From Syntrophales bacterium (GTDB taxonomy: Bacteria > Desulfobacterota > Syntrophia > Syntrophales > UBA2210): DNA of 64,000 nucleotides. The notes under the pieces are model-generated. The model did not search any database, was not told where the DNA came from, and saw only the letters and a list, made by a program, of their open reading frames with translations. Shown piece after piece: positions 12,794 through 23,880 of the stretch (position 1 is the stretch's first letter; each line of letters opens with the position of its first letter). The position numbers were made by a program, and so were the translations under genes. The stretch spans positions 256,001-320,000 of the forward strand of contig CAXXNF010000001.1 of the NCBI GenBank assembly GCA_963666365.2, given 5' to 3'.

Positions 12794-15700
12794 ATGAACA
12801 GGCCTCTCAGCATAGTTCTTTCTTGTTTGATTCTTGTAATTTGCGTACTTGCAGCACCCTCTGCACCTCTGTTCGCCGAGCCCGGCTCGCTGCTCTGGAG
12901 ATCGCCCCTGTCGAGCGGCGGTCCGTGCACCTGGTCCACACCCGTGGTAACAGGAAGCCGGTGCTATGTACAGGATCAGGAGGGCGGCATATACTGCTTT
13001 AACACGGCCGACGGTGAACAGCTCTGGTACAAGAAATTATCGGGCGGCTGGCCGACCGCGTCGCCTGTGTATAAAAACGGCAAGTTGTTCGTGTTTGCCG
13101 GAAGCGGCATCGATTTCGACGTTGTCGATACCGTCTACCGTCTCGATCCCCTCTCTTGCGGGGCTGTCGAAACGCAATTTACGCCGGCGCCGGGCGTCGC
13201 CATCAGCGCAATGTCTCCTGCCGTTTCGGATACGATGGTCTACGTTCCCACATCATCGACCCTTTATGCCATCGATGCGGGCACCTTTGAAAAAGCATGG
13301 GAGATGTCAGTTCCGGGGGCAAGCGTCATTATCGGGGGAGAAATCCTCTATGTCCTCGCCGACAAGCTCTACGGCGTTGATGCGCAAACCGGGAAAGAAT
13401 ACTGGCGCATGGACCCGCCCCACAGCACGGGATTCGATATGGGAGCCCTGTCGGGGGATATTTTGGTGGCGTATACAAAATATTCGGGTTCGCCCGACTA
13501 CGTATCCAAACTCCACGCCTTTCGACTGAGTCCGGAAAATATGGGTGCCTCCTTGCTGGCCACCTCCGTTGATCCTCCCTCATTGCTCTGGTCTTTCACG
13601 CCCACCGACCACGCATATTCGGATTGGTCCCCACCGGCCATAGACGCCAGCATATCGAGGGTGTATGCAGTAAACAGAGCCGGATATTTGTGGGCCTTCG
13701 ATCTTGAAGGCGACGGGACTCTTCTCTGGAACAGGCCTGTCAGGGGAAGCGGAATGGCATCGGCAAAACCGGTCGCTCTTGACGGCAAGGTCTATATACA
13801 AGCGGCGGGAACTTCCGGAGAATACGGCACTCCTCACTGGCTTGTCTGTTATGATGTAAATGAACTGGAGAAGTTCTTGGAATATGATGATCCAAATGAC
13901 CCGGATACGTTCTGGCAATCGGAATCGTTGGTGGATCTATGGAATGCAAACGCGACCCCGGAGGATATAGAACGACGGGCCCAATGGGAGGCGGACGGGT
14001 TCACCATCGGTGAGATGAAAACCGCCTGGGGCTCCCCGGCGGTCGTGAACGGCAAAGTTTATATAGCCACGGACCACGGCGGCGGAGTACTCGCCTTCGA
14101 AGGCGAACCGTCGGAGCACAGCTGGTACATGATCAGCCAGAATCCGCACCTTACCGGGTCAGTTGACGGGTCTCAGAAAGACTTTTACAATTCCCCCTCC
14201 ACTCTCGGCCTGTCCGTAGACAACGCCACCACCGCCTTCGGCTTCAGCGATCAGCCCCCCATGAGGATCGGGCTGCCCGATTACCAGGTCAACACGGCAA
14301 CGCTCAACCTTGTGTTGCAGGGAACCCTGTTCTGGATGAAAACCAGAGGCCCCTCCGTTGCCGCCGCACTGGTGTACAACGCAGACCATACACTGCATTC
14401 CGGCCTGTTCGGTCACGGATGGCGCTTCGCCTATGAATCCACCGCAACCATCGGCTGCTCCAGCCACGCCATAGATATCCGCAAGGGAAGCGGGCAGGTC
14501 CTCACCTTCACATCGACCGAAGACCTGACCGCCGATCCCGACACCCTTGACTACCCTCTGGAACTTACCCCCCCCACGGGTAATTTCGACCGCGTCACCG
14601 TGTATGAAGGGTACTGCGAATGGTTTGAAAAATCCTCCCGGTTTACCTACCGGTATGACAAATCCACCCTGGAGGGATCGCAAATCTATTACCTCACCTC
14701 CATCACCGACCGGAACGGAAACCGCATTGACGTGGAGGTGGACCGGACAAACGGACACATCACCTCCGTCACCGGGCCGGCGGACCGCCAACTGACGATG
14801 ACCTATGATGCCGACAGCCGCTGTACTCAGATTGCGACCCCGGCTTTCGATTCCCGATCCCTTGCCTTCGAATATGACGAAGAGGGGTTTCTCACGGCGG
14901 TTACCGACATGGCGGGCTACCGCAGCACCTACGAATACGATGACGACGGATACATGACCAGGATGACCCGGGACAGCCACTGGGCGACCTTCGAATACGC
15001 ATCCCGGGGATCGGGCCTGGGGAAATACGTGACGAAGGTCACGGACAGCGATGTCGGGTGGACCCTCTATGAACTCCTGAAGCAGGACCCGGTGGAGGTG
15101 CGGCGTACCAGCCGGCAGGGCAAGGCGAGGATTTTCAAAAGCAACGACGGCCTGACCGGGTCGGTAACGGACCCCCTGGGCAACGTCAGCACCATCGGAT
15201 ACGAGAACAAGCTGCCCGTCAGCTTCAAGGACAGAAACGGGCACATAGAGCGTCTGGTATACGACAACCGGGGAAATGTCACCACACAGATAGACGCCCT
15301 GAACCGTTGGACCCGGTTTTCGTACAACAGCGATGACACGCTTCACTCCATGACCAACCCGCTTTCCGAAACCTGGTACTACGCATACGACTCGCATCAG
15401 AACCTGACACGAGTCACCTCGCCCGAAGGCAACATCACACAGATCAGCTACGACAGTTACGGTCAGGTCAATAAAATTACCGATCCCAACGGCCATGTCA
15501 CCGATTATTATTACGACATCTGGGGCAATCTGAAAACCGTGGAAGATCCCCTGGGCAATGTCACCCGGTTCGGCTATGACGGATCCCATCTCCATTGCAT
15601 ATACATCACCGATGCACGGGATAATGAAAAACAGATACTCTACGACGACAACGACCGCCTGAGCCGCGTCTATTATGGGCCGGACTACGAAGGACCCAGC

Positions 15701-23496: not shown

Positions 23497-23880
23497 ATGA
23501 ATAGACGAATCCAATTAGTTCTACTTATAGTGGCCATGTGTTTTACCTGCACTGCCGCAGCGGCAGCAACCTATACCTACGATAAGCTGAACCGGTTGAC
23601 TAAGGTCGTCTACGGCTCCGGCAGCGACGGGACCTTGTCGTACATCGAATACACCTACGACGCGGCCGGAAACATCACCCTCATCAGTTCCCTCGGGAAC
23701 GTATTGTATGGCGATGTCGACAACAACCGGAAAGTCGATCTGGCCGATGCAATTATGTCTTTCCAGATCGTAACCGGCCAGAGCATCTCTCCCCCGGAAG
23801 TACGGAAAGCGGCGATCAACGATGACCGGCAGATAGGCCCGGAAGAGGCGATCTACATTCTGCGCAAAATATCTGAGTGA
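23497..23880 (+). CDS. Small secreted YD-hairpin + dockerin-like protein (copy 2)
   Basis: Paralogue of 17857-18240: MNRRIQLVLLIVAMCFTCTAAAAATYTYDKLNRL...LYGDVDNNRKVDLADAI. Confidence 0.88.
   Translation: MNRRIQLVLLIVAMCFTCTAAAAATYTYDKLNRLTKVVYGSGSDGTLSYIEYTYDAAGNITLISSLGNVLYGDVDNNRKVDLADAIMSFQIVTGQSISPPEVRKAAINDDRQIGPEEAIYILRKISE

Follow-up and report, generated by a model that had tools for sequence, protein, structure and literature searches.

What could be the use of a small secreted protein whose gene lies directly behind that of a secreted Rhs protein, where a cognate immunity gene would sit? The question is raised by a 64,000-nucleotide stretch of the genome of a Syntrophales bacterium (contig CAXXNF010000001.1, positions 256,001 to 320,000; called the window below). 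Two tandem modules on its + strand, at 12794-18240 and 18534-23880, each consist of a large Rhs gene followed by a gene for a protein of 127 amino acids (aa), which we will call the partner. A first-pass annotation of the window had described this two-gene module and its double occurrence, and both are borne out by the open reading frames (ORFs) and their translations. It had further suggested that the small protein adds YD strands to the Rhs shell in trans and tethers the shell through a dockerin to a cohesin-bearing scaffold, giving a teneurin-like contact device rather than a classical toxin-immunity pair. It also named, as ways of checking this, profile searches, a survey of the neighbourhoods of small homologues and a genome search for cohesins. 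The part of the suggestion that concerns a YD and dockerin subunit acting in trans is supported by several computational lines and narrowed to a specific predicted site; the part in which toxin function is replaced is not. Our own reading, to which we give a probability of about 55%, is that the Rhs proteins are secreted toxins for which the partner serves in trans as a subunit, either an anchor or an adaptor. Its YD part would sit as a handle in the shell and its dockerin would be coupled to a cohesin protein of the same cell.

Partner 1 (small1) is encoded at 17857-18240, with GGGAG 8 nucleotides (nt) upstream of its ATG, and partner 2 (small2) at 23497-23880; all features of the two modules are on the + strand. 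The layout of both is a signal peptide, two YD repeats that make four strands (the YD2 handle) and a dockerin fold, which in partner 1 occupy 17857-17928, 17929-18060 and 18061-18237, respectively. The Pfam RHS_repeat family matches each partner once (E 4e-7 in partner 1 and 8e-8 in partner 2) and NCBIfam has no model matching the small partner. The YD content given in the first-pass annotation was thus right and its count of about two strands too low. The two proteins are identical at 113 of 136 positions (83%). Synonymous divergence (dS) between the genes is 0.45, and over the whole gene the ratio of nonsynonymous to synonymous divergence (dN/dS) is 0.18, falling to 0.07 for the YD2 part; by these ratios both small genes are under purifying selection. 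An AlphaFold2 model built on 72 homologues has a mean confidence (pLDDT) of 84.1 and consists of a signal-peptide helix, strands at residues 24-28, 34-39, 48-54 and 60-66, and helices at 82-92 and 115-126. In the dockerin half of the model the two helices follow two loops, of which the first calcium loop reads DxDxN...D. When the model is compared with the Protein Data Bank (PDB) by Foldseek, its C-terminal half superposes on solved dockerins with template-modelling (TM) scores of 0.78-0.82 and root-mean-square deviations (rmsd) of 1.8-2.2 Å over 58 residues. The best of these is 6kge_B (target-normalised TM 0.81, rmsd 1.8 Å, 58 columns, E 2.7e-3). The N-terminal half is matched in fold by parts of the shells of Rhs, Tc and teneurin proteins (7q97, 4igl and 9ifo). 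No match of the partner model in the PDB reaches E<=1e-3, as would be expected because the dockerin domain is so short.

The larger genes encode Rhs1 (12794-17722, 1642 aa from the ATG, from which we number its residues; the longest ORF begins at GTG 12785) and Rhs2 (18534-23375, 1613 aa). They share one architecture: signal peptide, PQQ_2/BamB-like propeller, DUF6531, YD shell, Rhs core and tip. In Rhs1 these domains lie at 12794-12877, about 12881-14180, 14285-14509, 14510-17170, 17171-17404 and 17405-17719, the last being a tip of 105 aa; the tip of Rhs2, at 23067-23372, has 102 aa. Read by eye, as were those of the partners, a typical signal peptide opens both Rhs proteins, MNRPLSIVLSCLILVICVLAAPSAPLFA followed by EP. 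The profile searches recovered the PQQ_2 and Rhs core domains that had been named beforehand, as well as DUF6531. In Pfam, PQQ_2 is found with E 1e-20 in Rhs1 and 1.5e-14 in Rhs2, DUF6531 with 26 bits in Rhs2 and with 19.3 bits in Rhs1, under the cut-off of 24.1, and RHS_repeat (PF05593) with E 3e-70 in 12 stretches of Rhs1 and likewise about 1e-70 in Rhs2. The NCBIfam models TIGR01643 (177.8 bits, 11 stretches) and Rhs_assc_core, TIGR03696 (65.5 bits against a cut-off of 32.5, residues 1460-1537), match as well. The motif PxxxxDPxG is intact at the end of the core in both proteins.

Is the small gene really tied to Rhs genes? A full HMMER scan of 1.84 billion representative sequences gave 1814 that match the partner profile at E<=1e-3. 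Among the 150 matches listed, at least 64 are about 109-157 aa long and have an alignment that spans almost all of the query, and the family consensus is a signal peptide, TYTYDxLxRL...YxYDxAGN and a double dockerin motif. The bacterium's own genome (4.0 Mb, 94% complete) holds five YD2-dockerin genes, and all five sit 58-141 nt downstream of a large Rhs gene on the same strand. The five Rhs proteins concerned have diverse N-terminal domains (PQQ_2 twice, Lcl_C with an Ig domain, PD40 and DUF11) and differ in their tips. Five or six further Rhs genes or fragments of the genome have no YD2-dockerin neighbour. In a sample of 201 genomes of the order, full-length small homologues occur in seven places in six other genomes, in each case directly behind an Rhs gene. 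The neighbourhood survey proposed at the outset therefore agrees with the suggested linkage. An eighth match in the order is the C-terminus of a 3728-aa non-YD protein. Two giant non-Rhs surface proteins, one of 3855 aa at C1:683876-695443 (+) and one of more than 3728 aa at locus L068 of genome G083, end in a YD repeat and a dockerin, so that the YD-dockerin unit is also found fused to other proteins.

If the partner is a subunit of the Rhs protein, a site for it should be found on the shell. Residues 465-1397 of Rhs1 (43-row alignment) were co-folded with residues 23-70 of the partner (72-row alignment). The interface score ipSAE was 0.73 (0.75, 0.72 and 0.73 in the individual runs), and the best of three controls gave 0.00. 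The same mark is reached by 116 of 157 solved complexes and by 2 of 215 mismatched pairs, a calibration that is rough here since our own alignments were used. The runs share at least 96% of their contacts and the pLDDT of the partner is at least 79. The contacts fall at Rhs residues 1295-1331 and 1026-1072, away from the cut ends at 465 and 1397. Partner strand 1 (24-28) meets Rhs 1299-1303 and strand 4 (59-63) meets 1318-1322. The hairpin turns of the partner at 30-31 and 55-57 touch Rhs 1047-1049 and 1068-1070, which we read as the previous turn of the spiral, and a Pro-rich Rhs loop, residues 1304-1317 (LSSDPVTPAVSDAS), contacts the opposite end of the partner sheet. As a prediction this speaks for binding, and we read the contacts as setting the four strands of the handle into the shell wall, in its plane, with an Rhs strand on either side and the Pro-rich loop as a strap across them. 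The earlier suggestion that the small protein joins the shell in trans is thus upheld by prediction; the predicted place is an internal slot under this loop and not an open edge of the shell. Compared by sequence with PDB entries, the strap region gave repeat alignments that were all out of register.

The strap loop lies at 16703-16744 in Rhs1 and at 22365-22406 in Rhs2, and its length can be compared among Rhs proteins as the spacing from the YD-motif Asp that precedes the site to its counterpart on the far side. For a regular YD repeat this spacing is 20-21 residues. In the bacterium's own genome the five partner-linked Rhs proteins have spacings of 28, 28, 30, 30 and 30, and six C-termini of partner-less Rhs have 20, 20, 22, 22, 23 and 23. 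By this measure partner-linked Rhs proteins have a strap that exceeds that of partner-less ones by about 8-10 residues. We extended the comparison to all Rhs C-termini in hand, which after deduplication gave 73 distinct loops, and counted a partner as adjacent if it lay within 1.5 kb on the same strand. Long loops (>=27) had an adjacent partner in 33 cases and none in 11, with 5 not assessable; for short loops (<=26) the numbers were 2, 16 and 6. Fisher's exact test gives p = 7e-6, a value that is overstated, the loci being related and part of them having been found through the partner. One sample was seeded by the Rhs C-terminus alone, and 18 of its 20 new C-termini could be measured. Eleven of the 15 long loops in it have an adjacent partner, one has a partner at 3.9 kb and three, all on one contig, have none; of the three short loops one has a partner at 1.4 kb and one has a partner at 9 kb, the third being not assessable. 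Where a long-loop Rhs gene shows no partner downstream, it is in some cases directly preceded by a large ORF that runs off the end of the locus; in one complete case (L134) the handle is carried by this upstream protein. Because loop length tracks the presence of the partner, the strap is, at the level of sequence, a signature of partner-linked Rhs, and it lies at the site chosen by the co-fold.

The dockerin is only one of several domains that the handle carries. Pattern scans of public metagenome and genome contigs gave 30 ORFs with a signal peptide and two YD repeats at the start. At least 24 of them adjoin an Rhs gene or the C-terminal fragment of one; most follow it, and a few, among them L123, L124 and L126, come directly before it. 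Two, which are one sequence in two records, are not beside Rhs, and four have too little flank. In two Paenibacillus loci the handle is followed by three SLH repeats with fn3 and by CBM_4_9, respectively. On other public contigs it is followed by fn3 with dockerin, Flg_new_2 with dockerin, Big_5, LRR_5, FG-GAP, VWA or PKD, Ig-like domains being also among the fused types. In the Rhs-seeded sample of the same order long arrays follow it, composed of CarboxypepD_reg, CHB_HEX_C_1 (up to 12), PKD and Lcl_C. Because the C-terminal domains change while the handle stays linked to Rhs, these comparisons indicate that the N-terminal YD2 handle is the conserved element and the remainder of the partner an exchangeable surface, anchor or stalk module. 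Proteins of this kind apparently form an undescribed family of handle subunits encoded beside Rhs genes in several phyla. Among openly accessible full texts that pair Rhs or YD terms with dockerin, we found none that describes a separate YD2 partner of Rhs toxins.

If the dockerin is an anchor, what would it bind? Two proteins of the genome exceed the Pfam cut-off for cohesin. One, at C1:806714-809722 (-) (locus L024), has 1002 aa; besides its signal peptide it has a cohesin at residues 31-155, which scores 45 bits, and CarboxypepD_reg repeats, nine in number. The other, at C1:826658-827269 (-) (L025), is a small protein of about 167 aa in which the signal peptide is accompanied by a cohesin scoring 32.7 bits. 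A pair of like sizes recurs in the related genomes G025, G042, G083, G053 and G038. Cohesin was found in 18 of the 201 genomes of the order, and matches to the partner-family profile (alignment A1) are present in 15 of these 18 and in 24 of the 183 genomes without cohesin. The search for cohesins thus turned up the type of protein that the first-pass annotation had postulated. Seven genomes carry small YD2-dockerin genes, and cohesin is found in five of them. On the dockerin side, Dockerin_1 finds 18 matches in the genome at E<=0.01, of which 14 exceed the cut-off; most are at the C-termini of very large ORFs of 770-6562 aa. Such numbers point to a genome-wide, non-cellulosomal cohesin-dockerin display system with at least 18 dockerin-bearing ORFs. 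Related bacteria fuse the handle directly to CarboxypepD_reg arrays, and here the handle is on a dockerin and the cohesin is on a CarboxypepD_reg array. This parallel between a split and a fused stalk is suggestive. It is one of domain type, because the cohesin-CarboxypepD_reg protein resembles two fused YD2-CarboxypepD_reg partners weakly and at the domain level (BLASTP E 2e-4 and 0.024).

Taken as an anchor or adaptor subunit, the partner might work as follows. Judging by the N-terminal signal peptides, both chains would be exported by Sec. From what is known of the family, the Rhs chain would fold into a YD cocoon that encloses its tip of 102-105 aa after autoproteolysis at the intact core. 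The YD2 sheet would be taken into the wall as a handle, with strand 1 pairing with Rhs 1299-1303 and strand 4 with 1318-1322 under the strap 1304-1317, as in the co-fold. The dockerin would then project from the shell and couple the cocoon to one of the two cohesin proteins of the same cell, so that the cocoon would be displayed on a stalk or on the surface. Because the C-terminus of Rhs would be sealed inside the shell, it could carry no anchor there, and the partner would supply in trans an anchoring or stalk domain that the Rhs C-terminus could not. Other giant surface proteins of the genome carry a dockerin in cis; the Rhs proteins would receive theirs in trans. A bolder suggestion, which we regard as a long shot, is that the handle is a detachable stave closing a window in the cocoon wall, and that a pull on the dockerin or stalk at cell contact extracts the stave and opens the shell. 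If this were true, secreted Rhs toxins that lack an injection machine would have a force-triggered release, and the partners composed of a signal peptide, YD2 and a variable domain would be a cross-phylum system of trigger and anchor for Sec-exported Rhs and teneurin-like toxins.

Several points weigh against the idea of an anchor or adaptor subunit. The case is computational throughout, being built on predicted structures and on the comparison of sequences. For the co-fold the Rhs chain was used without residues 1398-1642, and their removal could have opened the slot artificially; we think it implausible that residues 1398 onward would fill it themselves, since they carry straight on from the strand ending at 1397, which is several strands distant. 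The co-fold model could also lean on the generic likeness of YD strands or on the solved two-chain Tc shells. As to the strap, the association between loop and partner is not phylogenetically independent and includes loci that were found via the partner. The 11 long loops without a visible partner do not fit it, nor do the two short loops with one, in both of which a gene intervenes and the partner is 1.2-1.4 kb off. The dockerin assignment, which was part of the original suggestion, stands by predicted fold and not by profile score. Dockerin_1 reaches 14.8 bits in partner 1, under the Pfam cut-off of 22.9, and gives nothing at E<=1 in partner 2, and the second calcium loop has Ala106 where the family consensus has its first Asp. 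Cohesin was not found in two genomes that carry the small gene, G080 (100% complete) and G193. Among + strand ORFs of at least 60 aa in the two modules no immunity gene was found for Rhs1 or Rhs2. Finally, the anchoring scheme would require a Sec-exported cocoon of 180 kDa to cross an outer membrane.

Has the small protein, then, anything to do with immunity? It could be a periplasmic inhibitor of a membrane-active Rhs tip. Its gene is immediately downstream of Rhs, and its product is exported, as would be expected of a factor against a tip acting in the periplasm. Neither module has another ORF of at least 60 aa; the gaps between Rhs and partner (134 nt in module 1 and 121 nt in module 2) hold none on the + strand, in line with the first-pass annotation, which saw no cytoplasmic immunity ORF. 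Both tips consist of a hydrophobic helix followed by a charged helical tail, and the tip of BiTLP, a teneurin-like protein, is described in the accessible text of PMC13018210 as acting from the periplasmic side. Against this stands the constancy of the partner: one family of handles follows Rhs genes whose tips differ in sequence, and what follows the handle in the partner is of adhesion, anchor or stalk type. In the co-fold the handle sits on the shell. Eight related loci have an additional small ORF, of 89-301 aa, after Rhs and before the partner, several of these ORFs being hydrophobic and one, of 140 aa, coming right after an Ntox33 tip. By position and sequence such ORFs are candidates for classical immunity genes, and because they are separate from the partner, the partner is unlikely to be the immunity protein; we consider this explanation very improbable. 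The order Rhs, immunity candidate, partner is seen at L093, L146, L152, L147, L148, L153, L160, L149 and L085. In the window a 57-aa ORF with a hydrophobic stretch (23877-24050, +) overlaps the stop codon of partner 2 and has a 30-aa homologue after partner 1 (18237-18329, +); it could be a small membrane immunity factor or noise. A different possibility is that the partner is an adaptor and not a self-anchor, its C-terminal domain aiming the cocoon at a prey or sibling surface, a polysaccharide or a matrix, or its dockerin binding something other than cohesin. The ligand-binding character of many partner domains elsewhere (CBM_4_9, LRR_5, FG-GAP, VWA and PKD), the divergence of the dockerin and the two genomes that have the small gene and show no cohesin would all suit this idea. 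SLH repeats, as in Paenibacillus, and dockerins are however classical anchors to a cell's own surface, and cohesin and dockerin-type proteins co-occur in the order; we think a targeting role unlikely, if worth keeping in mind.

A more sceptical explanation would take the predicted contact for an artefact and the small gene for a co-inherited secreted dockerin protein, or for a remnant of Rhs recombination, that is no subunit of the shell. The co-fold used a shortened Rhs chain, there is nothing specific about YD strands, the surroundings of Rhs genes commonly hold orphan Rhs fragments and small ORFs with YD repeats, and ends composed of YD and dockerin are also met on giant proteins that are not Rhs. 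A remnant would hardly account for a family that is kept across phyla with its signal peptide intact and a dN/dS as low as that of the YD2 part. An artefact, in turn, is hard to reconcile with a contact away from both cut ends, with a contacted loop that is longer in partner-linked Rhs, and with the implausibility of the distant residues 1398 onward as the natural occupant of the slot. We would be surprised if this explanation were correct.

The Rhs proteins themselves still look like polymorphic toxins, because by sequence they keep the autoproteolytic core and their C-terminal tips have diverged. On this point we depart from the first-pass annotation, which had set the device apart from classical toxin-immunity pairs; related loci carry an immunity-like ORF and a partner side by side. 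The tips of Rhs1 and Rhs2 have no family match in Pfam or NCBIfam and no usable match in the ESM Atlas. Among 15 partner-linked Rhs C-terminal segments (14 tips and one 300-aa segment), one has a Pfam family over the cut-off, namely Ntox33. As for delivery, the annotation had seen no PAAR, VgrG or other genes belonging to a type VI secretion system (T6SS), and this extends to the 94%-complete genome, where VipB (PF05943), PAAR (PF05488) and Phage_GPD (PF05954) have 0 matches each. The absence of these markers agrees with export by Sec rather than delivery by T6SS.

How does this arrangement compare with known ones? The nearest published system is that of the bacterial teneurin-like proteins (TLPs; Raoelijaona et al., Nat Commun 2026, PMC13018210), which, as far as the accessible text of that paper goes, are defined by an FN-plug, an NHL propeller and a YD shell and occur also in Thermodesulfobacteriota and Paenibacillaceae. 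The same text gives them N-terminal anchors in cis (lipoprotein, SLH or wall-binding) and diverse immunity genes directly downstream. Like the Rhs proteins here, TLPs have a Sec-type signal peptide and a YD shell enclosing a small polymorphic tip, and they lack a dedicated injection machine, surface display being proposed for them (PMC13018210, accessible part). Unlike TLPs, the present proteins have a PQQ/BamB-like propeller before DUF6531 in place of an NHL propeller, carry the anchor-type domain on a second chain and have no immunity gene that we could see. NHL has no match in Rhs at E<=0.01 in Pfam. The sole propeller matches, PQQ_2 and Beta-prop_ACSF4, fall at residues 33-208, N-terminal to DUF6531, and it is DUF6531 that takes the position ahead of the YD shell. 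The term teneurin-like, as used in the first-pass annotation, is therefore not apt by the TLP definition, with no NHL propeller between plug and shell. The word "dockerin" is absent from the TLP paper (PMC13018210).

Tc toxins have two large chains, joined by their ends, that dock on TcA. Their TcB-TcC cocoon (4O9X and 4IGL) is among the fold matches, and the likeness lies in a YD shell made from two chains that encapsulates the Rhs core and tip. Here, unlike there, a handle of 44 residues is predicted inside the wall of an otherwise complete shell. Rhs effectors of the T6SS, whose structures 7Q97, 8H8B and 8CP6 are also among the matches, share the RHS repeats, DUF6531, the Rhs-associated core and a polymorphic tip; unlike the proteins here, they have N-termini linked to PAAR or VgrG and no signal peptide, and in this genome the three markers named above have no match. 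The cellulosomal scaffoldins ScaO and ScaP, in the accessible text of PMC6780208 and PMC3413522, combine Rhs-repeat modules with a dockerin in one large protein. They resemble the present case in the dockerin fold, in the cohesins of the same genome and in the company of Rhs-repeat modules and dockerins, and differ in that here the context is not cellulolytic and the 127-aa protein is a subunit of its own, encoded after a complete Rhs toxin gene (PMC6780208 and PMC3413522, same parts).

How secreted Rhs and teneurin-like toxins are held and delivered in the absence of a T6SS or a Tc-type injector is posed as an open question in the Discussion of the TLP paper (PMC13018210, accessible part). 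The locus described here points to a concrete answer, in which the YD2 handle, small and conserved, would be plugged into the shell and bear whichever anchor, stalk or binding domain suits the lineage. In the present genome this is a dockerin, whereas Paenibacillus has SLH repeats and relatives have long stalks of beta-sandwich type. If this is correct, a large class of polymorphic toxins would have a second subunit, the strap loop would be a recognizable signature of it in Rhs, and cohesin-dockerin coupling would operate outside cellulosomes in an anaerobe whose closest named protein relatives are in Desulfobacterota metagenome-assembled genomes.

The history of the two modules can be read in part from their differences. 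Rhs1 and Rhs2 are identical at 1320 of 1659 aligned positions (80%), their propellers and tips have diverged, and the last ~430 residues of the shell before the tip are identical (about 16000-17400 against about 21700-23070). Because the shell ends are identical while the adjacent partner genes show the dS given above, the comparison suggests an old duplication followed by gene conversion confined to the Rhs shells. The flanks of the modules are unrelated to them: upstream, the - strand encodes a resistance-nodulation-division (RND) efflux pair, and downstream there are genes for an AMP-ligase and for acyl-CoA dehydrogenase-like proteins. Another dockerin-bearing protein, a secreted giant of 3007 aa, extends into the same window (1-8136, -, continuing beyond it to C1:255113) and is composed of four Lcl_C domains, NosD/beta-helix, DUF11, Flg_new_2 and a terminal dockerin. 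Elsewhere in the genome, paralogous genes whose products measure 107-129 aa and have a Cys-rich mature part after the signal peptide, with no Pfam match (C1:248037-248426 (-) and 248599-248988 (-), locus L022, and C1:36273-36596 (-)), adjoin, on the downstream side, two other modules of Rhs and partner. Orphan C-terminal fragments of Rhs, consisting of core and tip, are found at C1:728609-730978 (-), C1:378248-380549 (-) and C2:1172181-1177860 (-), near partner-less Rhs genes and in the manner of classical Rhs orphan arrays.

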